A stretch of DNA of 64,000 nt from positions 10,335-74,334 of the forward strand of contig JAJDDE010000124.1 of assembly GCA_029260475.1 (NCBI GenBank). Reading direction: 5' to 3'. Shown piece by piece: positions 7,076 to 32,021 of the stretch; within the stretch, counting starts at the first letter, position 1; the number at the start of each line of letters is the position of its first letter. Source of the DNA: Phycisphaerales bacterium. Lineage in GTDB: Bacteria; Planctomycetota; Phycisphaerae; Phycisphaerales; UBA1924. The translations under genes were made by a program, and so were the position numbers. The notes under the pieces were generated by a model. The model did not search any database and was not told where the DNA came from. It saw only the letters and a program-made list of their open reading frames with translations.

Positions 7076-7079
7076 CAAG

Positions 7080-7391: not shown

Positions 7392-7661
7392 ATGGCCAAC
7401 ACCGTCTCCTCCCGCAAGCGCGTCCGTCAGAACATCCGCAGCCGTATGCGCAACCGCTGGCGCATGAAGACGCTGCGCGACGCCCTCAAGCAGTTCGAAG
7501 ACGCCGTCATCCACTCCGAGACGGACAAGGCCAAGGAGAGCTACAAGCTCGCCTCCAAGCTGCTCGACAAGAGCGCGAGCAAAGGCGTGATCCACAAGAA
7601 CAACGCCGCCCGCAAGAAGAGCCGCCTCAACACGCGGCTCAAGAAGCTCGTCCAGGCCTGA
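7392..7661 (+). CDS. rpsT: 30S ribosomal protein S20
   Basis: 89 aa and basic. The sequence MANTVSSRKRVRQNIRSRMRNRWRMKTLRDALKQF...NNAARKKSRL is typical of S20. Confidence 0.95.
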   Translation: MANTVSSRKRVRQNIRSRMRNRWRMKTLRDALKQFEDAVIHSETDKAKESYKLASKLLDKSASKGVIHKNNAARKKSRLNTRLKKLVQA

Positions 7662-7688
7662 ACGCCCGGACAACCCGTTTGCCAACGA

Positions 7689-7720
7689 CGCGCCGCCCGA
7701 GGACGATGGGCGGCGTTTTC
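7689..7720 (+). terminator. Rho-independent terminator after rpsT
   Basis: Stem CGCCGCCC (7691-7698) pairs with GGGCGGCG (7708-7715) around a 9-nt loop, followed by TTTT (7716-7719). Confidence 0.75.
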
Positions 7721-7746
7721 ATGCGCACCCCGAAGGGAGCACGCCC

Positions 7747-9060
7747 ATGCCCGGCCCGAAAGTCCAGAGCGCCGAGATGGGCGACCCCGTCCTGCACGTG
7801 CAGCGCGCGGTCAGCCGGGCGGGCACAGAGCGGGAGCTCATCTACAACTTCGTGAGGGAACTGCAGGCGATCGGCGAGGTGCACCAGTACATGGAACTCG
7901 CGATCGTGCCCGGACGCGAGGACGCCTTCGTGATCGCGGACCACATCGACATGACCGACCCGGGCCTCACCCTCGAGACCGTCATGCGCCACAACAAGTG
8001 GCCCACCGGTCTGGAGCGCGAGACCATCCACACCGGCGGCCTCCTGGGCGAGATCATCAAGGGCGAGACTCCCAAAGTCAGCCGGGGCGTCTCGCCCGAG
8101 GACGACCCGCGTCTCGTCGGCATCATCCACACCCAGCGCGATGCACTCGCCGTGCCGATCTACTTCGACGGCGAGATCACGCAGTGGACCGTGCTCTTCC
8201 GTGCCCCGGGCCTCGAGCTGAGCGAGACCGACGTCCGGCTCGCCTGCGCCGTCGTCAACATGCTCTCGCGCGGCGCCTACCAGCTCCGGCTCCAACGCCA
8301 GGTCGAGGCGATGCACGAGCGCGAGCGCCGCAAGATCGAAGAGATCGCCCAGCTCCAGCGGTCGCTGTTGCCCCAGCGGCTGCCGCAACACCCGGCGCTC
8401 GATATCGCGGCCCACTACCGACCCTCCGACCTCGCCGGAGGCGACTTCTACGACTTCCGGGAGTTCGACAACGGCCAGCTGGGCATGATGATCGCCGACG
8501 TCGCGGGGCACGGACCCGCGGCCGCGGTGGTGATGGCGATGCTCCGCACCGCGATGGCCATGAACCGCACGATGGACGGTTCGGGCGACACCGTCGTCAC
8601 CGACATCAACCGCGCCATGAACGACGGCCTCCGCGCCGGCGTCTTCGTCACCGCCTTCTTCCTCCGGCTGAATCCGGCAACCGGGTTCTGCGGCTACGCG
8701 AACGCCGGGCACTGCCCGCCGCGCGTGCGCCGTGCCGGGGGCACGATCGAGACGCTGCACGAGAACGCGACGCCGCCGCTCGGCGTGCTCGAAGAGATCG
8801 AGACCCCGGGCGGCGAATGCACATTGCAGCCCGGCGAGTTCGTGGTCCTCTTCACCGACGGCATCAACGAGACCTTCAACATCGAGCACGAGCTCTACGG
8901 CTACGAGCGCCTCGACACCCTGATCCTCTCGCTGCCCGAGGACGCCTCTGCCCAGCACATCGTGGACGCGGTCATCGCCGATGTGGACCTTCACGCGGCG
9001 GGGAGGCCCGCGGACGACGACCGCTGCGTCGTCGTCCTGAGATATCTCGGCGGCACGTAA
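7747..9060 (+). CDS. GAF domain - PP2C/SpoIIE-family serine phosphatase
   Basis: 437 aa. The C-terminal half carries SpoIIE motifs: LAGGDFYDF, GMMIADVAGHGPAAAVVMAMLRT, LFTDGINE and DDRCVVVL. The N-terminal roughly 180 aa look GAF-like. Confidence 0.85.
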   Translation: MPGPKVQSAEMGDPVLHVQRAVSRAGTERELIYNFVRELQAIGEVHQYMELAIVPGREDAFVIADHIDMTDPGLTLETVMRHNKWPTGLERETIHTGGLLGEIIKGETPKVSRGVSPEDDPRLVGIIHTQRDALAVPIYFDGEITQWTVLFRAPGLELSETDVRLACAVVNMLSRGAYQLRLQRQVEAMHERERRKIEEIAQLQRSLLPQRLPQHPALDIAAHYRPSDLAGGDFYDFREFDNGQLGMMIADVAGHGPAAAVVMAMLRTAMAMNRTMDGSGDTVVTDINRAMNDGLRAGVFVTAFFLRLNPATGFCGYANAGHCPPRVRRAGGTIETLHENATPPLGVLEEIETPGGECTLQPGEFVVLFTDGINETFNIEHELYGYERLDTLILSLPEDASAQHIVDAVIADVDLHAAGRPADDDRCVVVLRYLGGT

Positions 9061-13732: not shown

Positions 13733-13829
13733 GACTAATCATACGAAGGGCCCCCGGGCATGAGCGGGGCGTGCGGGATATCTACACTCCCCTTCACCCC
13801 TCGCCAGCAGCGGGGGCGGAGGATTGCGC

Positions 13830-16800
13830 ATGCCATGGTTCCGCCGCGGCCCCAAGACCGCGACCGCTGATCGACCCATCCCCGTCTCCCTCCCCGCCGC
13901 CTCGCCCGGGGCGACGCGCGATGCGCTGCGCACCGATGCGCCCTGGCGCGAGGACCGGGTCATCGAGTTCGGCCTCGAGATCCTCGAGCGTGCGCGCGGG
14001 CACAAGTCGGGCCTCTTCTCCAAACAGTTCTGGTCCGACAAGCTCATGGACTGGTCCATGCGCGACCACGAGTTCAAGGTCCAGTTCTTCCGCTTCGTGG
14101 ACGCCTTCCCCGTGCTGCGCCACTCGCCCGAGGCGGTCTACGACCACCTCAAGGACTACATGGAGCAGCCCGGCGTCACCCCGCCCCCCGGCATGGCCTC
14201 GGGCATCAAGGCGGGCGGCGTCGCGAAGGGCGTCTTCTCGAAGACCATCGCCGGGCAGATCGAGGGCATGGGGCGCAAATTCATCGCGGGCACCGACGCC
14301 AAGGACGCCCTCCCCCAGCTCGAAAAACTCTGGAAAAACGGCATCGGTTTCAGCGTGGACCTCCTGGGCGAGGCGTGCGTCTCGAGCAAGGAGGCCGACG
14401 CCTACCTCGACAAGTACATGGACCTCGTGCAGAACCTGCCCGAGACCGTCCGCTTGTGGGTCCCGAACGAGCAGCTCGAGAACGATCATCTGGGTCCCAT
14501 CCCGCGGACCAACGTCTCCATCAAGATCAGTTCCCTCAGCGCGCAGTGCGACCCGATCGACCCCGACGGCGCGATCGCGGACATGAAGTCCCGCATCCTG
14601 CCCATCCTCAACGCCGCCCGCGAGCGCGGGGTCTTCATCAACTTCGACATGGAGCACTACGCCCTCAAGGACCTCACCCTCCGCCTCTTCATGGAGTGCT
14701 GCGAGGAGGTCGAGTTCGAGGCGGGCATCGCGATGCAGGCCTACCTCCGCTCGGGCGACGAGGACGCTCGCACCATCTGCCAGTGGGCAAAGCGGACCGG
14801 GCGACAGGTCAGCGTCCGCCTCGTGAAGGGCGCCTACTGGGACGCCGAAACCATCCACGCGGAACTCGAAGGCTGGCACTGCCCCGTGTGGAGCGTGAAG
14901 CGCGACAGCGACGCCTGCTTCGAGCGCATGACCGAGGCCTTCCTCGACGCCACGCCCCGCTCGCAGGGAGAGGGCGGCGTGAAACTCGCCCTAGGCTCGC
15001 ACAACGCTCGTTCCATCGGCGCCGCACTCGACGGGCTCGAACGGCGAGGCCTCCCCAGCAACGCCATCGAACTCCAGATGCTCCACGGCATGGCCGACCA
15101 GCTCAAGCACGCCGGCACCGAGATGGGCCTCCGCGTCCGCGAGTACGTCCCCGTCGGTGAGATGATCCCGGGCATGGCCTACCTCGTGCGCCGCCTGCTC
15201 GAGAACACATCCAATGAGTCCTGGCTCAAAGCCGGCTTCCTCGACAACGCGGAGCCCACGCTCCTGCTCGCCTCGCCCCACGACGCTCCCGGCGCCGAGC
15301 GACCGCAGGATCTCTCGACCATCGCCAACGAGCGACACATCCTCTCCCCCGCGATCGAGGGCGTCGGCGACGGTCGCCCCTTCTTCACCACGCCTGTGCG
15401 CGACTTCGCGGAGGCCGACCAGCGCGAGAACTTCGCGCGCGCCGCTGAGCGTGCAGAGGTCCCCCGTGTTGCGCTCGACGCGACCGCCGAAGACGCGGAA
15501 CGCGCCATCGATGACCTCCACGCCTTCTTCCCGACATGGCGCGATACGGACCCCATCGAGCGCGCCACCATCATCGATCGTGCCGCTGATCTCATGACCG
15601 CCCGACGCGACGAATTCTCGGGGGTCATCATGAAGGAGAACGGCAAGCCCCGGCGCGAGGCGGACGCGGACGTCACCGAGGCCATCGACTTCTGCCGCTA
15701 CTACGCGCGGTCAGCGCCCGCGCTCTTCCAGCGGGATCGCCTGGGCCGATTCATCGGGGAACTCGACCAGCTCTGGCACGAGCCGAGGGGCGTCGCCGCC
15801 GTCATCAGCCCGTGGAACTTCCCTCTCGCCATCTCCTGCGGCATGACCACCGCCGCCCTCGTCACCGGCAACACCGTGGCGCTCAAGCCCGCCGAGCAGA
15901 CGCCCGCCATCGCCAAGCTGCTCGTGGACATTCTCTTCCAGGCGGGCCTGCCCAAGGACGCGCTGCGGTTCCTCAGCGGCCCGGGCGAGACCGTCGGCGC
16001 CGCGCTCGTCCGCGACCCGCGCACGGCGCTCATCGCGTTCACGGGTTCCAAGGCGGTCGGCCTCGACATCATCAGGGCCGCGGGGATTGTGGATCAGGAC
16101 GCAGGGCAGCAGCACGTCAAGAAAGTCCTCTGCGAGATGGGCGGCAAGAACGCCATCATCATCGATACCTCCGCCGACATCGACGAGGCCGTCATCGGCG
16201 TCCGCTACTCCGCGTTCGGCTTCAGCGGGCAGAAGTGCAGCGCCTGCTCGCGCTGCATCATCGTGGACCCCGAGGGCCCGGACGGCACCGCGACGCGCAA
16301 TTTCCTCGATCGCTTCGTCCCCGCGGTCGAGGCCTTCATCACCGGCGATCCGATGCTGCCCGGTACGGACATGGGCCCGGTGATCGATGAGGAGGCCGCG
16401 AACACCATCATGGCCGCCATCGAGCGCGCCAAACAGGAGATCGGCCCGCCCGCGCTCGAGATGGAACACCACACGCTCCCCGAGGACTCGCCCACGATCC
16501 CAAAGCGCGTCATCGGACCGACGATCTTCACCGGCGTGCGCCCCGAGCACGACCTCGCGCGCAACGAGGTCTTCGGCCCCGTCCTCGCGGTCATGCACGC
16601 CCTGTCGTACGACGAGGCCATCCGCATCGCCAACGACCATCACTACAAGCTCACCGGCGCCGTCTACACCCGCAAGCCGGTGCACATCGAGCGCGCCAAA
16701 CGCGAGTTCCGCGTCGGCAACCTGTACATCAACCGCCCCTGCACCGGCGCCCTCGTCGCCCGCCACCCCTTCGGCGGCTTCGCCCTCTCCGGCGTCGGTT

Positions 16801-16895
16801 CCAAGGCGGGCGGTCCCGAATACCTCGAGCAGTTCGTGGTGCCGCGTGCCTGCGCCGAGAACACCATGCGCCGCGGATTCGCGCCCGAGCTTTAA
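13830..16895 (+). CDS. putA: Bifunctional proline dehydrogenase / L-glutamate-gamma-semialdehyde dehydrogenase
   Basis: About 1020 aa. The N-terminal half resembles proline dehydrogenase. The C-terminal half is an aldehyde dehydrogenase with ISPWNFPLAI, EMGGKNAIIID and FGFSGQKCSACSR. The start is ATG 13830, 7 nt after GGAGG; the track begins at TTG 13824. Confidence 0.92.
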   Translation: MPWFRRGPKTATADRPIPVSLPAASPGATRDALRTDAPWREDRVIEFGLEILERARGHKSGLFSKQFWSDKLMDWSMRDHEFKVQFFRFVDAFPVLRHSPEAVYDHLKDYMEQPGVTPPPGMASGIKAGGVAKGVFSKTIAGQIEGMGRKFIAGTDAKDALPQLEKLWKNGIGFSVDLLGEACVSSKEADAYLDKYMDLVQNLPETVRLWVPNEQLENDHLGPIPRTNVSIKISSLSAQCDPIDPDGAIADMKSRILPILNAARERGVFINFDMEHYALKDLTLRLFMECCEEVEFEAGIAMQAYLRSGDEDARTICQWAKRTGRQVSVRLVKGAYWDAETIHAELEGWHCPVWSVKRDSDACFERMTEAFLDATPRSQGEGGVKLALGSHNARSIGAALDGLERRGLPSNAIELQMLHGMADQLKHAGTEMGLRVREYVPVGEMIPGMAYLVRRLLENTSNESWLKAGFLDNAEPTLLLASPHDAPGAERPQDLSTIANERHILSPAIEGVGDGRPFFTTPVRDFAEADQRENFARAAERAEVPRVALDATAEDAERAIDDLHAFFPTWRDTDPIERATIIDRAADLMTARRDEFSGVIMKENGKPRREADADVTEAIDFCRYYARSAPALFQRDRLGRFIGELDQLWHEPRGVAAVISPWNFPLAISCGMTTAALVTGNTVALKPAEQTPAIAKLLVDILFQAGLPKDALRFLSGPGETVGAALVRDPRTALIAFTGSKAVGLDIIRAAGIVDQDAGQQHVKKVLCEMGGKNAIIIDTSADIDEAVIGVRYSAFGFSGQKCSACSRCIIVDPEGPDGTATRNFLDRFVPAVEAFITGDPMLPGTDMGPVIDEEAANTIMAAIERAKQEIGPPALEMEHHTLPEDSPTIPKRVIGPTIFTGVRPEHDLARNEVFGPVLAVMHALSYDEAIRIANDHHYKLTGAVYTRKPVHIERAKREFRVGNLYINRPCTGALVARHPFGGFALSGVGSKAGGPEYLEQFVVPRACAENTMRRGFAPEL

Positions 16896-19294
16896 ATCGC
16901 GACGCGAGACGCCACCGCCTCGATGCGCACAACACACTCCGCGTGCTCCCCCCAGCTCGGCAGCGCACGCAACCGGCGCACCGCGTCGGTAATCGCCTGC
17001 GAGCGAGAGCCGTCCTCGTTCTGACGCTCGAGGATCTCCAGCATCCGCGCCCAGGCGTGCCAGTGCTCGCGTGTAGCGCGCATCTCTGCGGACGCGCTGA
17101 GTCCGTTCGCCAGCGTTCGGAACACCGCGAACGCCTGAGCCTCTGCTCCAGAACGGAGCAGCGCCTCGCCCCGCAGCAGCCTCAGCCGCGACGATCGTTC
17201 GTCATCGCACGCCGAGAGCCGCTCGATCGCCTCGTCCGGCATACCCGCCCGGATCAGCAGCGCCGTGTCCCGTGCGCACCCGAGAGCCGTCTCGGGTCGG
17301 CTCCCCGAGCCCAGACGCCCGCGCACAAGCGCGTACCTCGCTTCAAGCAGTAGGCGCTCTGTCACCGGGGCCTCATCTCCTACGAAGGACCGCGTGAGGC
17401 CATCCGCAAGATCGGTGTCGGGGGTGAAGGGCGCGCCGGGGAGCAGGAACACCGGGTTCGGATCGGCCAGGAGCCCGCGCAACGTCGTCGCCGCGCCAGC
17501 CACATCGCCCGTCATCACCTGCGCGTGCGCACGAACCCGCCGGATCGAACCCAGGTACGCGCGCGACGCGTGCTCGTCGAGCCGTTCGGGTGAATCGGCG
17601 GGCAGGAGCACCGCCAGCGCCGCCTCCGCATCGCCGAGCACCAGCATCGCATCGGCGGCGTAGACGTCCCAGGGGCGCGACGACTCCGCACCGGAGCGCT
17701 CCTCCGCCGCCGCATCGCGTTCTGTACCGATGTGCTTCGCAAGCGCGAGCGTTTCGCGAGCGAGTCCCGCTCGCCCCGCATGCTCGGGCGACAGCGCCCG
17801 CAACGCAGCGCCGCGCACGCGCAGCGCTCCGTATGGGGCGAACGGCGATCCGCTCGACGCAAACACCTCGTTCGCCTCATCCACAAGGCTCAGAGCGCGC
17901 TCCGGCGTCACCCGGCGCTCCAGTTCCTCGAGCAGCGCAAGGCCCAGCACATCAACGGGCCCACCCTCAGGGTCCCGCAGAACGGGAAGCCGAGCGACAA
18001 GCAGCGCGTACCACCGCTCGCGCGACTTCGCGTCGAGCCACCCCGCCCGGTTCGCACCGCGGAGCCGCTCGTACGCGGCCCAGACATCGGGGTACTCCTC
18101 AACCTCTTCGAGAAGAGTCAGCAGCACCGCAACGCCCTCGTTGCTCAACCGGACATCGGCGCCGCCGATCGCGCTCACGCCGAACCAGTGCGACGAATGC
18201 ACCCATACGTTCGGATCGTCGGCCCGGGCCAGCTTCGCCGCCAGATACGCGCCGCGCAGCCACTCGATCGAGTCCGCCCCGCGCGGAACATCGAGCCCCT
18301 TCGCGAGCCGGATCGACACGGGCAGCCGGTCCATCGCCCCGATCCCGCCGAGCCGATCCCCCACAGCAGCCAGCGAGGGCCCGAGCGCACGCCACCGCGT
18401 GCGCTGACGCTCATCGCCCATCGCCTCCCGGAACGCCCGGTCGTGCCGAGCGACGACATCCTCGAGCGGAGCACCCCGGCGCCGTTCGAGCTCGAAGGCG
18501 ACGTCGAGGACCGGCACCGCGAGCGCGAGGTCGAGTGAGGCAGGCTCCGCGGCGAGCAGTCGATCGACGAACGCGAGCGCCGTCAGCGGGTCCATGCCGG
18601 ACTCGACGCGAGACAGCAGCGCCCCGAGCGTGATCTCCAGCGGCAACGATCGCTCGATGCGCTCGCCGGACCTCCCGTCGGTCGCCCTCCGTGCGCGTTC
18701 GTACTGACCGATCGCCTCGTCGTGCTGTCCCAGCAGGCGCAGCGCGTGACCGCGCGTGACGTACAACTCCGCGCTCTCGCTCAGCGACGCCTCCGCGTAC
18801 GCCAGCGCCGCCAGCGCAAGGCGACGCGAGGTGTCCGGGTCATCCCGCTGCAACGCGACCGACGCGAGCACCGCGCCGCGGGCGCCGAGCAGCGGGTACA
18901 CCGTCTCCAACTCCAGCGCAAGCCGGTCGGCCGCAGCCTCGTCGAAGACCACGCCCGACGGCGCACCCTCATCGAGCCAGAGCGGGATCGCTGACGTCGC
19001 GCGATCGCTCGTTTCGATCGCGAAGAGCGCCCAGGACAGCAGGTCATCGCGATGACGCGTCGCGAGCAGTTCGGAGACGGTCTCGCGCCACCCCCGACCC
19101 CAGACGAGATTCTCCGCCTCCAGCCGCTGCGTGCCAAAGGCATCGGCTGCCTCCGAACGGGCATCGTGCTCCTGCCGCTCGGTCGGGACGAGCGTGCGCA
19201 GGAGCGACGCCGGGCTGTACGCCGGCGGCTCGGCGTGAGCGCACGCCGAGGACAGCATCACGAGCAGCGAGGTGAGCAGGGCGCGGCGTCTCAT
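16892..19294 (-). CDS. Secreted TPR-like repeat protein, last gene of the Exb operon
   Basis: Track ORF is 16892..19525. The start is taken at ATG 19294 (MRRRALLTSLLVMLSSACAHAEP, a signal peptide), 1 nt after the upstream ExbD stop. About 800 aa, Ala/Leu/Arg-rich and helical-repeat in character. Its stop shares TTAA with the putA stop. Confidence 0.7.
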   Translation of the reverse strand: MRRRALLTSLLVMLSSACAHAEPPAYSPASLLRTLVPTERQEHDARSEAADAFGTQRLEAENLVWGRGWRETVSELLATRHRDDLLSWALFAIETSDRATSAIPLWLDEGAPSGVVFDEAAADRLALELETVYPLLGARGAVLASVALQRDDPDTSRRLALAALAYAEASLSESAELYVTRGHALRLLGQHDEAIGQYERARRATDGRSGERIERSLPLEITLGALLSRVESGMDPLTALAFVDRLLAAEPASLDLALAVPVLDVAFELERRRGAPLEDVVARHDRAFREAMGDERQRTRWRALGPSLAAVGDRLGGIGAMDRLPVSIRLAKGLDVPRGADSIEWLRGAYLAAKLARADDPNVWVHSSHWFGVSAIGGADVRLSNEGVAVLLTLLEEVEEYPDVWAAYERLRGANRAGWLDAKSRERWYALLVARLPVLRDPEGGPVDVLGLALLEELERRVTPERALSLVDEANEVFASSGSPFAPYGALRVRGAALRALSPEHAGRAGLARETLALAKHIGTERDAAAEERSGAESSRPWDVYAADAMLVLGDAEAALAVLLPADSPERLDEHASRAYLGSIRRVRAHAQVMTGDVAGAATTLRGLLADPNPVFLLPGAPFTPDTDLADGLTRSFVGDEAPVTERLLLEARYALVRGRLGSGSRPETALGCARDTALLIRAGMPDEAIERLSACDDERSSRLRLLRGEALLRSGAEAQAFAVFRTLANGLSASAEMRATREHWHAWARMLEILERQNEDGSRSQAITDAVRRLRALPSWGEHAECVVRIEAVASRVAI

Positions 19295-19295
19295 C

Positions 19296-19781
19296 TCAAC
19301 GTTCCTCCCCGCCCAACTCGACACGCTCGAACCCCGCATTGCGCAGCGTTCGGTACACCACCACAGCGTGCTCCCAGCGCGCGTCAGGCGCGGGCCTGAC
19401 GATGATCGCGTGCCGAGCCCCGAGCAGCTCAGCCGCATCCGCAACCTCATCCTCAAACGAGGTGCCAGCGCCGAACAGCGTGCGCTCGGATTCGATGGAG
19501 AACGCCAGCGGGTCGGGCCCTTCACTGGTGACCGTCAGCACCGTCGGCACCTCCGGGAGCGCGAAGGGATCCGCCGCCTCGTCGCTGCGCTGGGCGACGT
19601 CCAGCCCCGCGAGCGACGCGGGGCGCGCAAAGTCCGCGACGAGCACGAAGTAGATCAGCAGCAGGAAGACCACGTCGATCATCGGCGTCATGTTGAGGTG
19701 CATCGTGGGCGTGCCGGCCCGCCGGAGCATGGTGCGCCGCCGGCGCTCCGCGAGCGTGATGTCAGCGGGGCGCGCGCTCAC
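19296..19781 (-). CDS. exbD: ExbD/TolR-family biopolymer transport protein (second copy)
   Basis: Carries LNMTPMIDVVFLLLIYFVLVA. Its GTG start overlaps the upstream stop (GTGA). Confidence 0.88.
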   Translation of the reverse strand: MSARPADITLAERRRRTMLRRAGTPTMHLNMTPMIDVVFLLLIYFVLVADFARPASLAGLDVAQRSDEAADPFALPEVPTVLTVTSEGPDPLAFSIESERTLFGAGTSFEDEVADAAELLGARHAIIVRPAPDARWEHAVVVYRTLRNAGFERVELGGEER

Positions 19782-20191
19782 GGGCCGCCCTCCACCACGA
19801 GGTCCACCCGTTTCACGCCCGCCTCCCGGGCGGCGCCCAGCACAAGATCCGGCACCCGGTAGGGCGCCTCGCGGTCCGCGCGCAGGCGCACACGCTCCAG
19901 GCCGATCAGCCGAGCCGTCAGCGCGTCGAGGCCGGCGTCGTCGAGCGTGTACCAGCGCTCCCCCGCGAGTGCGCGCACGGGCGTCGCGTTGTGATCGATC
20001 TGCACGAGCAGCGTCCCGTCGCTCGTCGCCTCGGCACCCTGTTCCCGGGGCGGGTCGAGGTCCAGTGCGCGTGCGCGCGACAACTCCGCGACGAGCATGA
20101 AGAAGATGATCATCAGGAAGACCACGTCGATCATCGGCGTGAGGTTCACGATCAGCGTCCTCCGCCCCGCATCGCGCTCGCGCGTGCTCAC
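19778..20191 (-). CDS. exbD: ExbD/TolR-family biopolymer transport protein (first copy)
   Basis: Carries VNLTPMIDVVFLMIIFFMLVA. Its GTG start overlaps the ExbB stop (GTGA). Confidence 0.88.
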   Translation of the reverse strand: MSTRERDAGRRTLIVNLTPMIDVVFLMIIFFMLVAELSRARALDLDPPREQGAEATSDGTLLVQIDHNATPVRALAGERWYTLDDAGLDALTARLIGLERVRLRADREAPYRVPDLVLGAAREAGVKRVDLVVEGGP

Positions 20192-20901
20192 GCCTCGCTC
20201 GCCTTGCTGTCCAGAGCCTCGACCACGTGCTCCGCCTCGCGGATCGCCTCGACGATGAGCCCCTCGGTGCGGTTGCGCAGCAGCGCGTGCCCCGTCAGCG
20301 CAGGGATCGCGACCACGAGCCCCCAGAACGTCGTCGTCAGAGCCGTGCCGATGCCCGCCGCCAAACCGACCGCATCGGGCGTGCCCCCCGACGCCACGAT
20401 CTCGCGGAAGGCGACGATCATGCCGTACACCGTTCCGAACAGCCCGATCATCGGCGCGACGTTGCCGATGATCGACAGCGGCTCAATCGCGCGCATCTGG
20501 CGTAATAGCGCGGCCTCACCCTCCTGCTCCGCCGCCCGGATCGCCGCGTCTTCAGAGTGCGCGACCTCCTCGAGCGCGCTCGCGAGCACACGACCAAACA
20601 GCGTCGTCGAAGCCGCGGCCTCGCGAGCCCCGTTGCGTCCCTTGCGCGCCAGTTCCAGATCGCCCTGCGGGATCGCACCGCTCCGCCTGATGCGCATCGC
20701 GCCCGACACGAGCAGCGCGAGGCAGAGCACCGAGAGCGCCATCAGCAGCCACGTGATGCCCGAACCAAGCCACTCGACGTCGCCCGTCGAGGGGTGGCGC
20801 TGGATAAAAAAGGCGCTGGCGACGGAGGTCTCCGCGTCGTTCTGCGCGAAAGCGCCCGAGGGCAGCGCCAAGGTGAACAGCATCCATGCGTACCGTGTCA
20901 T
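20188..20901 (-). CDS. exbB: MotA/TolQ/ExbB proton-channel protein
   Basis: Has a signal/TM segment followed by IIGNVAPMIGLFGTVYGMIVAFREI and GIGTALTTTFWGLVVAIPAL. ATGA overlap with the upstream gene. Confidence 0.9.
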   Translation of the reverse strand: MTRYAWMLFTLALPSGAFAQNDAETSVASAFFIQRHPSTGDVEWLGSGITWLLMALSVLCLALLVSGAMRIRRSGAIPQGDLELARKGRNGAREAAASTTLFGRVLASALEEVAHSEDAAIRAAEQEGEAALLRQMRAIEPLSIIGNVAPMIGLFGTVYGMIVAFREIVASGGTPDAVGLAAGIGTALTTTFWGLVVAIPALTGHALLRNRTEGLIVEAIREAEHVVEALDSKASEA

Positions 20902-21863
20902 CGTGCTCCTTCGAGGAGTGTGGATCGTTCGAGGATGACGAGCCCGGCGCCCTCGCCGTGCAGGCGTGCGATCTCGGTCAGCGGATCGCCCACGCTGGGC
21001 GGTCCCACGCTCACCACGCCGATGATCGCACGCCGACGCCCCGTTCGCTCGTCGATCGGGTTCAGCGCGTCCAACTGAGAGAGAAAACCGTCGCGATTCG
21101 ATGACGCGTTGTCCGGGCTCGCGAGCAGGAAGACCGCATCGGGTTCCATCGCCAGCGCCCTCTCGAGCGCGAGCAGCAGGTCCGAACGCCCGCTGGGCGT
21201 GACCTCGGTCGCGAACCAGTCCGAGAGTCTCTGCGCACCCCGCGTGGTCGTGCGCACAAGGGCGTCCCCAGCCATCGCGACGATGCCCGAGGCCTCCCGG
21301 TCACCGTTCGCCGGGCGTCCCAGGGCCGCGATAACCGTCGCCTTCTGCGTAGCGTTGAGCGAGTGCAGCGAACGCTCGAGTTCCTTGGCGATCGCCGGGA
21401 AGAGCGCGATCGAGGAGCCCGATGCATCCACCACATACACGACACGCTTCGCGTCCGAGGCGCCGCTGCCGAAGAACTCGGCCTCGCGCCGGACCTCGGG
21501 CAGCGGGAGCGGTGCAGCTGAGTCCGGCACCGCGTCGTCCACTGATGCCGGTGGGAAGTCGAAGTCCGCCGGAGCGAGCATCACCGGCGCCGGAGCGATC
21601 GCACGCGGCTCGAACAACGCGTCGATCGGGCTCGTCGTCGCCTCCGGCTCAGGCGCAGTGCTGGTCCGGGCGGGCTCGGGCGTGAGCCCGGCGCTCTGGA
21701 ACACCACCGTCGTCGCGTCAGTCGCGTACGGCTCGTCCTCCTGCTGCTGGATGGACCACACCAGCGCCGTCCCCGCACCGATCACCGAGGCGTGCAGCGC
21801 GATCGACACCACCCAGCCAAGCGCCAGCCCAGGCCCCTTCGCGCTACCGCTGCGCTCAGGCAT
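20898..21863 (-). CDS. TonB-like N-terminal anchor (S-x3-H) + Pro/Ala-rich linker + von Willebrand A domain
   Basis: The N-terminal TM segment LGWVVSIALHASVIGAG has the same Ser-x-x-x-His spacing as E. coli TonB (SVCIH). The linker reads TPEPARTSTAPEPEATTSP...APLPLPE. The C-terminus has the MIDAS motif VVYVVDASGSS. No TonB C-terminal domain is recognisable. Confidence 0.7.
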   Translation of the reverse strand: MPERSGSAKGPGLALGWVVSIALHASVIGAGTALVWSIQQQEDEPYATDATTVVFQSAGLTPEPARTSTAPEPEATTSPIDALFEPRAIAPAPVMLAPADFDFPPASVDDAVPDSAAPLPLPEVRREAEFFGSGASDAKRVVYVVDASGSSIALFPAIAKELERSLHSLNATQKATVIAALGRPANGDREASGIVAMAGDALVRTTTRGAQRLSDWFATEVTPSGRSDLLLALERALAMEPDAVFLLASPDNASSNRDGFLSQLDALNPIDERTGRRRAIIGVVSVGPPSVGDPLTEIARLHGEGAGLVILERSTLLEGAR

Positions 21864-22686
21864 CGCCTTCGAGGGACTTGGATGTCTTCTTCTTGCGCCC
21901 GCCGAAGATCAGGCGGTCCACGCTGAACGCGCCCGCGCCCGAGAAGAAGAGCGCCTTGGCGGACGCCATGATGAGGAGCTGGAAGAAGAGCGTCTGGTAC
22001 GCGCTCGTCCAGGTCGCCGGGTCGTCGAGAGGCCAGGGCGGCAGGAATCCGACGAATGCGCCCGATTCGCCGAGCCACGGGCTGATCTGCGTCAGCCAGC
22101 ACGCGACGACCATCGTGCCCAGGATGGCGAGGGCCCACAGGCGCGTGAAGACGCCCAGCAGCAGGAAGAAGCCGCCGACGAACTCGGTGACCGCTGCGAG
22201 CCACGCCATGCGTTCGAGCCACGCCCCCGTAGACAGGAACCCGGGCCAGTGCCCGTCCTGTGCCGCGCCGTTCATCGCGAAGACGAGCCCGTACACGCGT
22301 CGCACCGATCGGAGGTTGGTGTCACCGGGTTCAGCAGCCGAATCACCGGCGGTGCTGTCGAACACTTCAGCAATACGGTCGAGTTCTTCGTCCCGTTCCT
22401 CTTGGGACTGGGTCTCCGTCTCGGGCTCCTCGTCCTGCGCACGGATCATCTCGAACGAGGGCGCTGACATCGCCCCGCCCGTCGCGTCGATCGGCGCAGG
22501 CGGTTGTGGCCCGCCCGGACGTACCTCGAGCACCTCCAGCGACACCAGCGTCGCCTCCTGCTCCCACGAGAGCTGGAAGTCGCTGTAGAACAGCTTGCCC
22601 GCCCCGTAGAAGAGGAAGATCAGCCCCAGCACCACGCGGAGCGTGAGCGGGGCCAGGTGCAGGGCGGCGTTCTGTCGGACAGCCAT
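21856..22686 (-). CDS. DoxX-family membrane protein with a long acidic insertion
   Basis: Carries LTLRVVLGLIFLFYGAGKL and AAVTEFVGGFFLLLGVFTRLWALAILGTMVVA. The central insertion is rich in E/D (EEPETETQSQEERDEELD). The start is taken at ATG 22686. 8-nt overlap with the downstream gene. Confidence 0.75.
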   Translation of the reverse strand: MAVRQNAALHLAPLTLRVVLGLIFLFYGAGKLFYSDFQLSWEQEATLVSLEVLEVRPGGPQPPAPIDATGGAMSAPSFEMIRAQDEEPETETQSQEERDEELDRIAEVFDSTAGDSAAEPGDTNLRSVRRVYGLVFAMNGAAQDGHWPGFLSTGAWLERMAWLAAVTEFVGGFFLLLGVFTRLWALAILGTMVVACWLTQISPWLGESGAFVGFLPPWPLDDPATWTSAYQTLFFQLLIMASAKALFFSGAGAFSVDRLIFGGRKKKTSKSLEGDA

Positions 22687-22801
22687 GGGCGTCCTCCGGG
22701 GCGGTAGGGGGTGTCGGGCGTCGGGCGCGACCGTGCGCGGGTACCCGCCCCTCATCCTACCGACCTCCCGCCCCGGGGCTCACCTAGAATCCCAGCACCA
22801 C

Positions 22802-22884
22802 GCGGGCGTGGCGGAATTGGCAGACGCGCGGGATTTAGGTTCCCGTGTCATTACGACGTGCAGGTTCGATCCCTGTCGCCCGCA
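22802..22884 (+). tRNA. tRNA-Leu (anticodon TAG)
   Basis: Sequence GCGGGCGTGGCGGAATTGGCAGACGCGCGGGATTTAGGTTCCCGTGTCATTACGACGTGCAGGTTCGATCCCTGTCGCCCGCA. The anticodon stem CGGGA/TCCCG has loop TTTAGGT. It has a long variable arm, a T loop TTCGATC and acceptor GCGGGCG/CGCCCGC. Confidence 0.9.
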
Positions 22885-23408: not shown

Positions 23409-23762
23409 TCAGTTCTCGTCGTCCTCGTCGCCCCGCTCGACCTCGACTTCCAGCCCGTCGCCGTCTTCAACAACCTCGATCTCGTACCGCACGCCCTCCT
23501 TCGAGCCTTCGAACTCGTAGACGATGTCCCCGTGCTCAAGTTCGATCTCCGCACCCGTCAACGTGATCCCGGGCACAGCGTTCATCGCCGCATGACGGTA
23601 CCGCTCGGGCACGTCTCGCAGCGCGACGCGGGCTTCGTGCTCGCCCCCGTTGCACACCTCGCAGGTGGAGGAACAGCCTTGGAGCGAGCAGAGGGCGGCC
23701 GCCAAGCCCAGTGGCAGGAGCGTGGTGTGTGTGTTCAAGGTGGTTCTCCGGTAGATAGACAC
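23409..23762 (-). CDS. Lipoprotein with PepSY-like domain
   Basis: Lipobox LCSLQGC follows the signal peptide. The C-terminal GDIVYEFEGSKEGVRYEIEVVEDG is PepSY-like. It has an acidic tail and a GTG start. Confidence 0.65.
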   Translation of the reverse strand: MSIYRRTTLNTHTTLLPLGLAAALCSLQGCSSTCEVCNGGEHEARVALRDVPERYRHAAMNAVPGITLTGAEIELEHGDIVYEFEGSKEGVRYEIEVVEDGDGLEVEVERGDEDDEN

Positions 23763-23816
23763 GCGATCGGGCCCTCAGCGTAGCACCCGGGGCGGGTGGC
23801 CCACTACGCTGTACCC

Positions 23817-24920
23817 ATGCCGCCACAACTGCGTGACATCATCGGCCAGCCCCGCGCGATGGAGACCTTCCTGACCGCCGCCCGCTCGGGGCGGATCCAC
23901 CACGCCTGGATCCTCGCGGGCCCGCGTGGCGTCGGGAAGCGCACAGCAGCCGTCGCCTTCGCCAGCCTCCTGCTCGATCCGACGACCGCCCCCAACCTCG
24001 CGGGCGAACTCGAGCCCGAGGAGGGTTCGCACTGCCAGCGCCTCATCGACGCCGGCAACCACCCGGACTTCGCCATCGTCACCAAAGAGCTCGCCGCCCT
24101 CTCCGAAGACGCCGACGTCCGCAACCGCAAGCAGACGACCATCCCCAAGCAGGTCCTCGTCGAGCGTCTCATCGAGCCCAGCGCGCTCGCCGGCAGCGAT
24201 GCGACCAAACACGCCCTGGCCCGGCGTGTCTTCATCGTGGACGAGGCCGAACTCATGGGCCCGCCCTACGGCAGCAACCCCGCGCAGAACGCGCTGCTCA
24301 AAACGCTCGAGGAGCCGCCGCCGGGCGTGGTCATCATGCTCGTCACGAGCGACGAGAACCGCCTGCTCCCCACCATCCGCTCGCGCTGCCAGCGACTCAC
24401 CTTCGGACGGTTGTCCGACGACGAGATGGAGCGGTGGAGGAGCGAGCGCGCGGGCGACGCGGTACGGGCGCTGGAGGGCGAGCAGTGGGGGTGGATCAAG
24501 CGCTTCGCCGACGGCGCCCCGGGCGTCGCGACCACCGCCGCCGAGACCGGGCTCACGCAGTGGGCCGGTGCCCTCGAACCCCTGCTCGCGCAGCTCGAGC
24601 GGGGCAGCTTCAACGCAGACTTCGGCAAAATCGCCCACGACCTCGCCGACGCCTGGGCCAAGCAGTCCGTGAAGACCCGCGAGAAAGCGGGCGAGAACCC
24701 GTCGAAAGAGGCGGCCAACGCCGAGGCCCTGCGCCACCTCGTCAGCCTCATCGCCCACCGCCTCCGCGAACGCCTCCGCGCCACCGTCGAGAACGGGGGC
24801 GACCCCCAGCCCGCGCTCGATGCGATCAGAAGGATGCAAGAGGCCGAGAACGCCGCGAGCGCGCGCGTGCCGGTGGAGTTCGCCTTCGATTCCTTCGGCG
24901 CCGCGGTGGCGGCACACTGA
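23817..24920 (+). CDS. holB: DNA polymerase III delta-prime subunit
   Basis: Carries IIGQPRAMETFLTAARSGRIHHAWILAGPRGVGKRTAA, LLKTLEEPP and IRSRCQRLTF. The start is ATG 23817; the track begins at GTG 23796. Confidence 0.9.
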   Translation: MPPQLRDIIGQPRAMETFLTAARSGRIHHAWILAGPRGVGKRTAAVAFASLLLDPTTAPNLAGELEPEEGSHCQRLIDAGNHPDFAIVTKELAALSEDADVRNRKQTTIPKQVLVERLIEPSALAGSDATKHALARRVFIVDEAELMGPPYGSNPAQNALLKTLEEPPPGVVIMLVTSDENRLLPTIRSRCQRLTFGRLSDDEMERWRSERAGDAVRALEGEQWGWIKRFADGAPGVATTAAETGLTQWAGALEPLLAQLERGSFNADFGKIAHDLADAWAKQSVKTREKAGENPSKEAANAEALRHLVSLIAHRLRERLRATVENGGDPQPALDAIRRMQEAENAASARVPVEFAFDSFGAAVAAH

Positions 24921-27231: not shown

Positions 27232-29388
27232 ATGAGCGTCAGGAGTGAGGGAGGCCCCGTGTTCGGCAAATCGAAGCGCAACAAGAAGCAGAGCGACGAG
27301 CCCCAGCAGCCCGTGCCGCCCCCCAAGCCGGAGCGTCCGCGCGCCGAGCACCACCCGACCGGCTCGCCCATCGACCACCGCCCGGAGCCACCCGTCTCCC
27401 CGCCCGCGGCCCCGATGATGACCAACCCCTTCACGCCCAACGCGCCGAGCGCGACCAAAGCGGACCAACCCGCCCCGAAGCCGGTTTCGAACGAGCCCGA
27501 GCCCGTCGAGCACGCCGCAGCAACCGAGGCCGAAGCCACCCTCCGCGCGATCGATGACGCCCTGAGCCAGCTCGCCATGACGCACGAGCTCGAAGGGCTC
27601 GCCGACAGCGAGCTCAACCTCGCCCAGCGCTTCGAGTCGTTCTCCAAGATGATGTCCAGCGAGCGTGCCCGCCTGTCGTTGGTTGAGGAGGAGCGCCTCA
27701 ACGCCGTCGGTCAGTTCCAGGAAGCCCAGCAACGCCTGGAGTCCATCGAGCGCGAGCGTGACGAGGCCCGCGCAGCACTTCAGCAGGCGAGCTCCGAGCA
27801 GCCCGCGCCTGACCAGCCGCAACACGACGAACGCCTCGCGCAACTCGAAGCGGAACTCCGAAGCCATCAGGCGCGCATGCACGAGGTCGAGGCCGAGCGC
27901 GACAGCGCGAACGCGGAGCTCATCCGTCTTCGTGAAGAGCAGCAGAACGCGCACCAGCACGACGCCGATCGCGTCTCCCGGCTCGAGCAGGAGATGAAGG
28001 AACTGCACCAGCAGATCGAGTCGGCGGTCTCCGAGCGCGACGGCGCGAACGCCGAGAACGAGCGTCTCCGCAGCGAGCAGCAGCACTCCCAGCAGGACCA
28101 CGAACGCGTCTCCCAACTCGAACAGGAACTGCACGCACTGCGAGAACAGACCAGCGCGGCTGAAAGCCAGCGCGACGGGGCCCGCCAGGAACTCGACCGG
28201 CTCCGCGAGGAGCACCAGCGCAGCGAGCAGGGCCGGTCGGAGCACCAATCACGGATCGATGAACTGACCGGCACGATCGGCGCGATGGAAGAGCGCGTGG
28301 CGCAGGCGGAGAACAAAGAGAACGAGCTCGGCAGCGAACTCGAAGCGCTCCGCCAACAGATCTCCGAAGCGGCGGAGCAGCGCAACGCCGCGTGCGCCGA
28401 GCGCGATGCGCTGGCGCAGAAACTCGGTCAGAAGGCCGAGTTCGAGGTCGGCCCGGACGAGTTCTGCGAGCGCCGTCGCGCACGCCTCAACAACGTCCGC
28501 AACGCCCTCGGGTCGCGTTCCCAGCAGCTCTACAAGGTCAAACAGGTCCTCGAGCACAAGGCCCGTGAACTCAAGGACGCGGGCGAGGCCCGGCGCCAGG
28601 CAGAGCAGATGCTCTTCGAGGCCCGCGAGCAGAAGGCGATGACGCAGCGCGTCTTCACCGGCGTGCAGTCCATCCGCGCCAAGGGCGCCGCGGGCGTCTT
28701 CGTCGCGTGCCTCACGATCGCGTGGGTCGCTCTGCTCGGCGCATCGTGGGTCGGCGTCTCCATGTTCGTCCCCGTCGAGCACAACGCCCGCGTCGGCATC
28801 GCCTGCGACACGCGAGGCCTGCCCGATCCGGACGCCTCCGCGCAGGCGTGGACGGCCTTTGCCCTCGCGCTGAACGAAGACCCGATGTTCCTCGAACGCG
28901 CCGCCCAGCGGTTGAAGACCCGCTCCTACGAGGAACTCGCCAGCCCCTCGGACCTCCGCGACTACCTCGCCCAGAACGCTGTCTTCGACTCGCCGGGCGA
29001 GGGGCGCATCGACATCACGATCCGAGGCGAGGGGCGCGACCGCACCGAGCGCGTGCTCGAGACCTTCGCAACCGCCGTCGTCGGCTTCGCCAACGAAACA
29101 CGCGAACGCCGCAGCGACAACGCCCCCGCCTCCGTCGTCGAGCCCGCGAGCGCCGAGTCAACGCCCGTCGATGACCCGCGCCCCGCGATCGCCGCGGGCG
29201 TTGCGGGTGGCCTCACCGCGCTGCTGCTCATCACCGCGATCGCCGCATGGCGCTCCGCCCGGCGCTCGCTGGTTGAGGGCGGGCGCGAAGCCCTCGCGGA
29301 GATCGACACCCACCAGCAGTCCCACTACGAAACGCCCCCCGCGGGTGCGGAGGGCGGGCAGGGGATGGGGATGTCGTCCGGCGTGTAG
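27232..29388 (+). CDS. Coiled-coil protein with internal tandem repeats and a C-terminal two-TM domain
   Basis: 718 aa. It has a Pro-rich N-terminus, then four roughly 45-aa repeats (ERDxAxxExxRLRxEQQ...LEQE), more coiled coil, and then TM-domain-TM (VFVACLTIAWVALLGASWVGV ... IAAGVAGGLTALLLITAIAAW). An alternative start is GTG 27259, preceded by GGGAGG. Confidence 0.7.
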   Translation: MSVRSEGGPVFGKSKRNKKQSDEPQQPVPPPKPERPRAEHHPTGSPIDHRPEPPVSPPAAPMMTNPFTPNAPSATKADQPAPKPVSNEPEPVEHAAATEAEATLRAIDDALSQLAMTHELEGLADSELNLAQRFESFSKMMSSERARLSLVEEERLNAVGQFQEAQQRLESIERERDEARAALQQASSEQPAPDQPQHDERLAQLEAELRSHQARMHEVEAERDSANAELIRLREEQQNAHQHDADRVSRLEQEMKELHQQIESAVSERDGANAENERLRSEQQHSQQDHERVSQLEQELHALREQTSAAESQRDGARQELDRLREEHQRSEQGRSEHQSRIDELTGTIGAMEERVAQAENKENELGSELEALRQQISEAAEQRNAACAERDALAQKLGQKAEFEVGPDEFCERRRARLNNVRNALGSRSQQLYKVKQVLEHKARELKDAGEARRQAEQMLFEAREQKAMTQRVFTGVQSIRAKGAAGVFVACLTIAWVALLGASWVGVSMFVPVEHNARVGIACDTRGLPDPDASAQAWTAFALALNEDPMFLERAAQRLKTRSYEELASPSDLRDYLAQNAVFDSPGEGRIDITIRGEGRDRTERVLETFATAVVGFANETRERRSDNAPASVVEPASAESTPVDDPRPAIAAGVAGGLTALLLITAIAAWRSARRSLVEGGREALAEIDTHQQSHYETPPAGAEGGQGMGMSSGV

Positions 29389-29397
29389 CCGCGTCGC

Positions 29398-30186
29398 TCA
29401 GACGTCGCCCACCATCAAGATGGTCTCGTTGGCGCCGCCAGCGCGGGCGGGGCCCTCGATGGTCATGCCGCTGATCGAGGACTCGCTGAGCCCCTCGACG
29501 TGGACGGGCACGAAGCCGCCGTTGGCGATGATCTCCGACAATTTCACGACCGCCTGGCCGTTGCGCACGGTGAGCGTGTACGTGCCGTCGGCGACGGGCA
29601 GGCCCTCGCAGAGCAGCAGCGCCTCGCCCGAGTCCGGGTCGAAGAGCAGCGAGGCGGTGACCGACGGGTGCAGGTCGGGGGCCGAAGGCGTGAAGTTCAC
29701 GGGGCGCATCCGCTGAGCCATCAGGATGTGCTGAGCCCGGGGCCCCATCTCTTGAACGACCGCGATCAGGCTGTCCTGCCTGTCCAGCATTCGCGCTTTG
29801 GAACTCTGTTGGGCAACGGTGAGGTACATCACGCCCAGCACCAGCGAAGCCGTCGCGAAACCGATGCACGCCGCACGCCACATCGGCGCCGTATTGCGCA
29901 GCACAGGGCCGGCACCGATCGTCGCGAGCACGTCCTGCTCCTCGCCACGCACCGCGGCGATCGCTTCACGCACCGCCGAGACCACGCGCGCCCGGAGCCC
30001 CGCGGGGGGCTCGACCGGCGGCAGCAGGTGGTCGGCGTTGGCGAAGCGGGCCTGCTCCTTGCGCACACGGGCCTGCACCGCCGGCGGCGCGGCCCGGAAG
30101 GCGCTATCGAAGCTCTCCCGTTCCTCGTCGTCCAGAAGACCCATCGCGTCGAGCGATGCCAGTTCCAGAAGTTCTCGCGTACTCAT
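29398..30186 (-). CDS. Anti-sigma factor (RskA-like: N-terminal sigma-binding helix, one TM, periplasmic domain)
   Basis: Carries ELLELASLDAMGLLDDEERESFD and the TM segment MWRAACIGFATASLVLGVMYL. ATGA overlap with the upstream ECF sigma. Confidence 0.75.
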   Translation of the reverse strand: MSTRELLELASLDAMGLLDDEERESFDSAFRAAPPAVQARVRKEQARFANADHLLPPVEPPAGLRARVVSAVREAIAAVRGEEQDVLATIGAGPVLRNTAPMWRAACIGFATASLVLGVMYLTVAQQSSKARMLDRQDSLIAVVQEMGPRAQHILMAQRMRPVNFTPSAPDLHPSVTASLLFDPDSGEALLLCEGLPVADGTYTLTVRNGQAVVKLSEIIANGGFVPVHVEGLSESSISGMTIEGPARAGGANETILMVGDV

Positions 30187-30752
30187 GATGACAGCTCCTC
30201 GGTGCTGCTTCGTTCCCGGAGGCGCACCAGCGCGCGGCTGAGCGCAGATTTGATCGTGCCAAGCGGCACATTGAGTTCGTTCCCGATCTGTTTGAGCGTC
30301 TGGCCACCCAGGTACGCCCGCTTAATGACGGTCTGTTGAAGTTCGGGCAGTTTGTCCACCCGCTCCAGCAGAGCGGCGAATCGTTCGTCCTGCTGCAGTT
30401 CCTCGCCCGGCATCACGCCGCTGGCGGGGGGCGACCAGCCCTCTTCGAGGACGGACGCCTTGATCTTGCTCCGCAGGCGACGGAGGCGATCCACCATGTG
30501 CCGGCGAGCGATGAGCATGACCCATGTCACCAACGCCGCACGCTTCGGATCAAACCGGCCAGCGGTTCGCCACAGGCGGACGAACACCTCCTGCACCACG
30601 TCCTCCGCGTCCGAACGCGAGGGCATGGTCTGGTACGCCATGCGGTAGACCAGTGAACCGAATCGGTCGTACAGCTCACCGATCGCGTCCTGATCGTCCG
30701 CGGCGATGCGCTGCATCAGCTCGAAGTCGTCTTGTCGTGATGCCTTGGCCAT
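30183..30752 (-). CDS. ECF RNA polymerase sigma factor
   Basis: Region 2 reads DAEDVVQEVFVRLWRTAGRFDP and VTWVMLIARRHMVDRLRR. Region 4 reads QTLKQIGNELNVPLGTIKSALSRAL. Confidence 0.9.
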   Translation of the reverse strand: MAKASRQDDFELMQRIAADDQDAIGELYDRFGSLVYRMAYQTMPSRSDAEDVVQEVFVRLWRTAGRFDPKRAALVTWVMLIARRHMVDRLRRLRSKIKASVLEEGWSPPASGVMPGEELQQDERFAALLERVDKLPELQQTVIKRAYLGGQTLKQIGNELNVPLGTIKSALSRALVRLRERSSTEELSS

Positions 30753-31043
30753 GACGAGGAGATCGTATACCCATTCAAATCACAAACAAATCTAATCCCA
30801 GTGTGGTGAGCACACTACAACACCCTGATACGCCTCGAGAGCCCCGCGGGATGCCACAATCAACCCTCACAGCGCACAAAACGGTGCTGACCCCCGGTAT
30901 CTCGCTTGTACTCGTGGAACACCGCCTCCCCGATCCGGGTTGGTCCGGCTGGAGAACCCAACGAAACCGTGCGGTCACGACGATGAAAAGGTTGTGTGAG
31001 GCCTCCCACGAGGTACACTTCACGAGTAAGGGGTGATGGCTTG

Positions 31044-31916: not shown

Positions 31917-32021
31917 AACCGCGGGCCGCGCTCCCCTCTCTTCAACCTCAGGCCGATCGGTCGTAACGCGACTACGCTCAGGGTTCGCGGGCACCACGCC
32001 CACCCGCGAGCATCCAAGCAC

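Follow-up and report, generated by a model that had tools for sequence, protein, structure and literature searches.

Organization of the gene cluster

A stretch of 64,000 nucleotides from contig JAJDDE010000124.1 of a Phycisphaerales bacterium (GenBank assembly GCA_029260475.1), referred to below as the window, contains on its minus strand a compact cluster of six open reading frames (ORFs). In order, these encode a DoxX protein, a protein that joins a TonB-like N-terminus to a C-terminal von Willebrand factor type A (vWA) domain (hereafter the anchor protein), an ExbB/TolQ-like protein, two ExbD/TolR-like proteins (ExbD1 and ExbD2) and a large secreted protein that resembles tetratricopeptide repeat (TPR) proteins (Table 1). 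Positions are counted from the first letter of the window.

The six cluster genes are translationally coupled. The DoxX and anchor genes overlap by 8 nucleotides, the anchor/ExbB, ExbB/ExbD1 and ExbD1/ExbD2 junctions consist of the 4-nucleotide overlaps ATGA, GTGA and GTGA, respectively, and a single base separates the ExbD2 stop codon from the ATG of the gene for the 800-amino-acid (aa) TPR-like protein. An original prediction, made from the DNA letters without database searches, had described six packed minus-strand genes with these junctions, and the ORFs and overlaps lie exactly as it placed them. Equally real is a smaller detail that it mentioned, the TTAA in which the TPR-like gene and the convergent putA gene (13824..16895) share their stop codons. 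The putA product is identified by the Pfam domains PutA_N, Pro_dh and Aldedh, and its gene bounds the cluster downstream. The upstream end is marked by a tRNA-Leu gene (anticodon TAG; 22802-22884, plus strand) located directly upstream of the DoxX start. Promoter and terminator scans of the cluster were uninformative.

Table 1. Genes of the cluster and features of their products. AF2, AlphaFold2; pLDDT, predicted local distance difference test; MIDAS, metal ion-dependent adhesion site.
Feature	Position	Strand	Remarks
DoxX gene	21856..22755	minus	299 aa; first gene of the cluster
Anchor gene (putative TonB-like vWA transducer)	20898..21863	minus	321 aa
Anchor, transmembrane helix, residues 12-40	21744..21830	minus	helix in the AF2 model, pLDDT 86-97
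Anchor, S20	21804-21806	minus	within the transmembrane helix
Anchor, H24	21792-21794	minus	within the transmembrane helix
Anchor, disordered linker, residues 41-135	21459..21743	minus	pLDDT 41-59; Pro/Ala/Glu-rich
Anchor, predicted vWA domain, residues 136-321	20901..21458	minus	α/β; pLDDT >90 over 140-321 (AF2)
Anchor, partial MIDAS, D146-A-S148-G-S150	21414-21428	minus	plus S227
ExbB/TolQ-like gene	20188..20901	minus	237 aa
ExbD1/TolR-like gene	19778..20191	minus	137 aa
ExbD2/TolR-like gene	19296..19781	minus	161 aa
TPR-like protein gene	16892..19294	minus	800 aa; secreted; signal peptide, residues 1-22
TPR-like protein, conserved C-terminal module	16895-17197	minus	~100 aa; shared with the 28 recovered downstream ORFs

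A TonB-like anchor with a vWA head

Direct searches with the anchor protein returned no Pfam match of its own and no TonB_C domain at E<=1, and nothing in a sequence search of the PDB. Its N-terminal region gave only weak NCBIfam matches, to TonB (0.008), GltJ (0.018) and TolA (0.19, in the transmembrane region). The assignment therefore needed a family alignment (A1), which was built from a homologue search that yielded 61 relatives, nearly all of them from metagenome-assembled genomes (MAGs) of Phycisphaerae or Planctomycetota; the closest are MAG proteins 52-64% identical to the anchor protein. The AF2 model of the protein has a mean pLDDT of 79 and a predicted template modelling score of 0.67 overall.

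The N-terminal helix (LALGWVVSIALHASVIGAGTALVWSI) contains no Asp and carries a Ser-x3-His (S-x3-H) signature, whose S20 and H24 are present in 59 of the 59 aligned relatives that cover the column. When the family profile was compared with the PDB, E. coli TonB (9ddo_F) was matched at E=0.11 with TonB S16 and H20 placed on S20 and H24, and a pairwise hhalign comparison with residues 12-62 of E. coli TonB (probability 85%, E 6e-6) was in register. In both comparisons the TonB segment ISVTMVTP aligns to a V-x-F...P motif of the family, which in the window protein corresponds to a 'motor/stator box' (V53-x-F55) near the start of the linker; F55 occurs in 50 of the 61 relatives. Of its 95 residues, the linker has 18 Ala, 16 Pro and 9 Glu, and an F-x-G motif is conserved directly before the globular domain. 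The TonB-type helix with Ser-x3-His that the original prediction had read from the segment VVSIALHASV is thus borne out by conservation and by the alignment with TonB, and the Pro/Ala/Glu-rich spacer that it had proposed is confirmed by the composition and low pLDDT of residues 41-135.

The C-terminal domain of the anchor protein is confidently predicted, from family profiles and structure modelling, to adopt a vWA fold. Pfam searches on the 61 relatives detected VWA_3 in 20 and VWA_2 in nine, and the family profile matches the vWA domain of ITIH4 at 3.5e-7. The top 50 matches listed by Foldseek against the PDB are all vWA-type α/β domains, mostly annotated as vWA or integrin I, and include ITIH1/4, the bacterial vWA protein 4fx5, CaV α2δ-1, CMG2, vWF A1/A3 and integrin I domains (E 3e-7 to 3e-4). 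A vWA domain in place of the TonB C-terminal domain had already been proposed from the segment VVYVVDASGSS, which is present; the profile, AF2 and Foldseek results agree with that proposal.

The accompanying claim that the MIDAS is intact held in part. The DxSxS portion is kept: D146, S148 and G149 are invariant (61/61 relatives), S150 is found in 46/61, and S227, conserved in 56/61, aligns with the MIDAS Thr of ITIH4. However, the canonical β4-loop Asp is absent, being replaced by S249 in the window protein and mostly by Arg, Ser or Thr in relatives. The anchor vWA domain therefore lacks a complete five-residue MIDAS (DxSxS plus Thr and Asp), and because the fifth residue is missing, its metal dependence is uncertain.

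The ExbB and ExbD proteins

The ExbB protein matches Pfam MotA_ExbB (5.8e-25) and has a signal-peptide-like N-terminal sequence. Its closest solved structures are TolQ (8odt, 1.6e-8) and ExbB (5sv0, 2.4e-8). The pore-lining Thr residues are kept (GLFGTV, TTT), and the position equivalent to TolQ E173 and ExbB E176 is occupied by Thr. ExbD1 and ExbD2 both match Pfam ExbD (8.2e-18 and 1e-13, respectively). The best match of ExbD1 is TolR, its transmembrane Asp (MIDVV) aligning on TolR D23, and the best match of ExbD2 is ExbD, with its transmembrane Asp on D25 of the E. coli protein. ExbD1 and ExbD2 are 31% identical (44/140) and are therefore a heterologous pair. ExbB and the ExbD1/ExbD2 pair bear the residues of a working 5:2 motor. 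A defence system of the Zorya-like MotAB type was ruled out, with no PADLOC match at E<=0.01 for any of the six proteins.

DoxX and the TPR-like protein

The DoxX protein, a protein of the inner membrane, matches its Pfam family (1.9e-12) in two stretches split by an insert, the long acidic insert that the original prediction had pointed out. It forms a TM1-TM2 loop of ~135 aa, at about residues 68-180, with a net charge of about -14. The DoxX relatives encoded beside these vWA genes are 252 aa long at the median, and their large TM1-TM2 loop (median 94 aa) is usually acidic. Given the Arg-rich N-terminus, the positive-inside rule suggests that the acidic loop faces the periplasm.

The TPR-like protein begins with a signal peptide that ends in an AxA site (MRRRALLTSLLVMLSSACAHA, followed by EPP). 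Pfam TPR matches to it are sub-threshold, and large-database searches with the single sequence and with a 16-sequence profile retrieved essentially nothing but the query, the candidate list having probably been flooded by low-complexity Ala/Arg/Leu words. Related loci (see below) supplied the homologues, as ORFs that follow the vWA gene. In 56 of these loci the cluster is followed by a large ORF of 445-911 aa, in most cases with a signal-peptide-like N-terminus. A jackhmmer search started from the 800-aa protein recovers 28 of these 56 ORFs, from loci with and without motor genes alike. A profile of 16 TPR-like ORFs (A2) matches consensus and engineered TPR proteins in the PDB (4e-11 to 1e-3). 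The single-sequence AF2 model, which was used for this statement only, is all-helical at low confidence (pLDDT 48.7).

Proteins in which the anchor and the TPR-like protein are fused also exist. An exhaustive search with the A1 profile identified 870 cluster representatives (50% identity) at E<=1e-30 and 6,786 at E<=1e-10. Eleven of the best 150 matches are long representatives of 888-974 aa, and in ten of them (P0129, P0165, P0172, P0175, P0180, P0182, P0183, P0188, P0196 and P0198) A1 covers the first ~330 residues and A2 the rest (E 2e-74 to 3e-7, Z=1e6). The A2 match there spans profile positions ~45-755 and so leaves out the signal peptide. Two MAG loci (L058, with an ORF extending to ~6217, and L068) likewise contain a fused ORF that keeps S-x3-H, with DoxX upstream and no adjacent motor. 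Because such natural fusions act as Rosetta stones, the vWA head and the TPR-like protein probably work as partners in the periplasm.

Gene neighbourhood in related genomes

When each GTDB species was represented by a single genome, 185 genomes proved to contain relatives; 80 loci were retrieved, and nine further loci came from exact-protein look-ups. The survey comprised 86 related loci. These were searched by tblastn with the six window proteins, and loci were considered informative if they were non-duplicate and extended at least 3 kb downstream (75 loci) or at least 1.8 kb upstream (67 loci). Of the 75 informative loci, 53 (71%) have ExbB and ExbD genes immediately after the vWA gene, and a DoxX gene lies directly upstream of it in 53 of 67 (79%). 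The linkage recurs in different species whose vWA proteins are 24-41% identical, and the arrangement is conserved across many species of Phycisphaerae and Planctomycetota. A hydrophobic N-terminal helix with S-x3-H is encoded in 58 of 59 motor-linked loci and in 18 of 24 loci without an adjacent motor; three of the six failures among the latter are truncated ORFs.

A conserved link between a helix of this type fused to a vWA domain and exbBD, which the original prediction had put forward for checking, is therefore present in 53/75 related loci. The analysis turned up no TonB_C domain, the vWA assignment stood, the helix aligned with that of TonB and no better with unrelated anchors, and the linkage to exbBD was found.

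Proposed function of the cluster

We consider it probable that the cluster encodes a force transducer of the periplasm that belongs to the 'vWA transducer' type and is driven by the proton-motive force (pmf). Like TonB, the anchor protein would use its transmembrane helix, with His24, to dock against the outer face of the ExbB pentamer. Proton flow through the motor would then produce a pull or a rotation on the linker, and the force would pass along the linker to whatever the vWA domain holds. The load would consist of the vWA head and the TPR-like protein, possibly joined by the acidic loop of DoxX, and DoxX would be a third conserved component. The original prediction had proposed that the pmf motor energizes a metal-dependent vWA module plus a TPR scaffold and not a TonB-dependent receptor; the properties of the anchor protein and the gene linkage support this proposal, but the state of the MIDAS leaves its metal-dependent part uncertain.

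Several observations weigh against such a transducer. No motor genes occur within 8 kb in 22 of the 75 informative loci, and in motor-less loci such as L003, L006, L007, L009, L032 and L062 the vWA gene directly overlaps the TPR-like gene. Most motor-less loci keep S-x3-H, so that coupling would have to act in trans; this implies that the motor is encoded elsewhere or that the Ser and His have another role. The Leu and second Ser of the SHLS motif found in published vWA transducers are not kept, position 31 being Gly or Ala and position 35 Val. The MIDAS is incomplete, which makes metal-mediated ligand binding uncertain. The vWA::TPR fusions could in principle be frameshift artefacts, although 11 separate clusters at 50% identity and the two MAG loci contain them. 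Finally, the transducer class was described computationally and no deletion phenotypes are known (PMC12204202).

Because motor-less loci join the vWA and TPR-like genes directly, the core of the system consists of DoxX, the vWA anchor and the TPR-like protein, and the exbB-exbD-exbD genes sit between the latter two in ~70% of loci. These three proteins might then form a self-sufficient complex, for example a Bat-like stress or redox scaffold, in which ExbBD is facultative and the Ser and His serve oligomerization or contact with DoxX. Such a complex would account for the three-gene core without an adjacent motor (22/75 loci), for a linkage of DoxX as tight as that of the motor (53/67 versus 53/75) and for the occurrence of vWA::TPR fusions in the motor-less arrangement; the pairing of vWA and TPR also recalls the Bat proteins of Bacteroides. 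We nevertheless regard it as unlikely, since S-x3-H and the motor box are in register with TonB and, in 71% of loci, the motor genes are found exactly between the vWA and TPR-like genes with 4-nucleotide overlaps. Moreover, neither MoxR nor DUF58, which define Bat-type operons, is encoded among the six genes, and orphan TonB paralogues that use a distant motor are common.

If the cluster does encode a pmf-driven transducer, its role can be approached through its surroundings. It is flanked by holB, tRNA-Leu, putA, mnmA and an mqnC-like gene, a housekeeping setting. A TonB-dependent receptor/Plug or TonB_C domain was not found in any of the 26 window proteins scanned, that is, the six of the cluster and 20 others, and the neighbourhoods of relatives likewise showed no TonB-dependent receptor. 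In addition, Planctomycetes are reported to lack Pal (supporting information of PMC12204202). Taken together, these points weakly favour a Tol-like housekeeping role, in which the system would tether or remodel the inner membrane with respect to the outer layers, over TonB-type import.

Import would mean that the vWA head replaces TonB_C and energizes an outer-membrane transporter for nutrient uptake. The TonB-like architecture is compatible with this, as is the exbB-exbD1-exbD2 set, because a pair of ExbD genes typifies the Ton systems of Bacteroidota and other groups. Apart from the housekeeping setting and the lack of a receptor gene in the cluster and among the other window proteins scanned, however, the genes conserved beside the vWA gene in the 86 loci encode DoxX and a soluble TPR-like protein and not a barrel, and a vWA domain is not known to form a β-strand-augmentation site for TonB boxes. 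An import function is accordingly improbable.

The Tol-like role can be cast in a more specific form, in which the powered trio of DoxX, vWA anchor and TPR-like protein would be the Phycisphaerae substitute for Tol-Pal. The vWA domain with its partial MIDAS would hold on to an acidic ligand, for which the C-terminal module of the TPR-like protein and the DoxX loop are the two candidates, and would so carry force to the outer layers during growth or division in a lineage without Pal. This version is speculative and unlikely.

A surface motility or adhesion machine is also conceivable, by analogy with Agl-Glt of Myxococcus, which combines TolQR-like motors, TonB-like proteins and the vWA adhesin CglB. 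Such a role was suggested for vWA transducers (PMC12204202), a vWA adhesin offers a precedent (PMC9946355), and the N-terminal region of the anchor protein shows a weak NCBIfam likeness to GltJ (E 0.018). Yet neither the window nor the relatives have other glt-like genes close to the cluster, and the vWA domain is tethered to the inner membrane by a ~95-residue linker and is not surface-exposed. FliD and FliS genes near the cluster in two relatives (L001 and L004) point, in turn, to swimming cells. A motility or adhesion machine thus appears very improbable.

To our knowledge, TonB and TolA were for a long time the only known routes by which the energy of ExbBD/TolQR-type motors is carried across the periplasm. 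The vWA domain, as a third head domain, implies a third energized envelope process. The anchor family is large and concentrated in Planctomycetota, whose envelope biology is little understood. Candidate partners and sites for testing are the TPR-like protein, a putative obligatory partner in view of the fusions, the acidic loop of DoxX and the conserved DxSG(S) motif.

Other features of the window

The divergent neighbour of the cluster is holB (DNA polymerase III delta'; 23796-24920, plus strand), which also adjoins the cluster in the distant relatives L001 (2949-4034) and L004 (5301-6374), the two with FliD and FliS genes nearby. A 117-aa protein without a Pfam match is encoded between tRNA-Leu and holB (23409-23762, minus strand); its N-terminus resembles a lipobox (LCSLQGC), and its C-terminus is very acidic.

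Elsewhere in the window, a gene for an FHA-GAF-SpoIIE (PP2C) phosphatase (37239-38843, plus strand) is convergent with one for a Ser/Thr protein kinase that has a long TPR_12/TPR_10 array (38847-41378, minus strand). Two peptidases are encoded: a tricorn-type protease of 1147 aa with PD40 propellers, Tricorn C1, PDZ and S41 domains (45676-49119, minus strand) and a C25 (gingipain-family) peptidase with an EF-hand pair at its N-terminus (59919-61697, plus strand). A 718-aa protein (27232-29388, plus strand) has a sub-threshold, coiled-coil-type match only (TMF_TATA_bd, 1.9e-5). The G+C content is lower at 1-8000, 30001-32000 and 50001-54000 (0.63-0.64, versus 0.67-0.71 elsewhere), and gene calling based on G+C at third codon positions found few ORFs at 931-5350, 51133-54165 and 56764-59919.

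Comparison with known systems

The system resembles E. coli TonB (9ddo) in its S-x3-H transmembrane helix, β-strand motor box, Pro-rich linker and ExbB/ExbD partners. Unlike TonB, the anchor protein has no TonB_C domain, no TonB-dependent receptor is encoded nearby and the equivalents of L27 and S31 are not conserved. With TolA and the Tol-Pal system it shares an ExbB that is marginally closest to TolQ, an ExbD1 closest to TolR, an accompanying TPR gene, as is cpoB, and a housekeeping genomic context; the reported lack of Pal in Planctomycetes leaves this niche open. In contrast to TolA, the anchor protein has neither a helical domain II, its linker being predicted to be disordered, nor a TolA domain III, its head being of the vWA type. 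The cluster also lacks tolB and pal genes, and the 800-aa TPR-like protein is far bigger than CpoB.

The Bacteroides aerotolerance (Bat) proteins provide another parallel, since membrane-anchored vWA proteins are encoded there together with TPR proteins. However, Bat vWA proteins do not have a TonB-like S-x3-H helix, Bat operons do not contain ExbBD, and membership in a Bat operon is ruled out by the lack of a MoxR ATPase or DUF58 among the six genes.

The closest counterparts are the vWA force transducers predicted in silico in Tichowtungia aerotolerans and bacteria of the Planctomycetes-Verrucomicrobia-Chlamydiae (PVC) group (Mol Biol Evol 2025, PMC12204202). In these proteins a transmembrane helix with an SHLS motif is followed by a disordered linker that contains a motor box, and the C-terminal domain is of the vWA type; the class occurs in Proteobacteria, Planctomycetes, Verrucomicrobia, Bacteroidetes and Rhodothermaeota. 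In PVC bacteria a TPR gene and paired tolR-like genes accompany them, and AlphaFold 3 models dock the conserved His on the motor. The same study describes a TPH-vWA family, encoded with TolQ only, which likewise has a membrane-tethered vWA protein beside a TolQ-like gene; its members have no SHLS motif but an ExbD-like Asp helix, and no tolR genes nearby. Membership in that family was ruled out for the window protein, whose helix has the Ser and His and no Asp and which is accompanied by two ExbD genes.

The window locus agrees with the published transducers in having a single transmembrane helix with Ser and His, a motor box, a disordered linker of ~100 residues and a vWA head, together with one tolQ-like gene, two heterologous tolR-like genes and an adjacent TPR gene; PVC bacteria and Planctomycetes are listed among the hosts. 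The V53-x-F55 box resembles 'ASFSG' at 55-60 of the Tichowtungia protein. The sequence of the Tichowtungia 'transducer 2', typed from the supporting information of PMC12204202, was compared with A1 by hhalign and matched over the vWA core (probability 96.4%, E 1.3e-9), the alignment including the FFG...V...DA and ATPEN...W motifs; the N-terminal region could not be aligned, being short and too divergent. As all vWA domains are related, this match shows homology and not necessarily orthology.

There are also differences. The gene order is DoxX-vWA-motor-TPR here, whereas in the published loci the vWA gene is located downstream of TPR-tolQ-tolR-tolR, and one transducer copy is present compared with two in Tichowtungia. 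The window protein has 321 aa and no large insertion, compared with 474 aa and a large insertion in the Tichowtungia protein; at the site where the latter reads FILDANK, the family of the window protein keeps an invariant DxSG(S). No literature on links between DoxX, vWA and ExbD was found, and the DoxX linkage, the motor-less arrangement with S-x3-H and the vWA::TPR fusions are not mentioned in PMC12204202. With the vWA transducer idea published in 2025 (PMC12204202), the locus is best viewed as a further member of a described class, to which the present analysis adds the link to DoxX, the motor-less arrangement and the vWA::TPR fusions.

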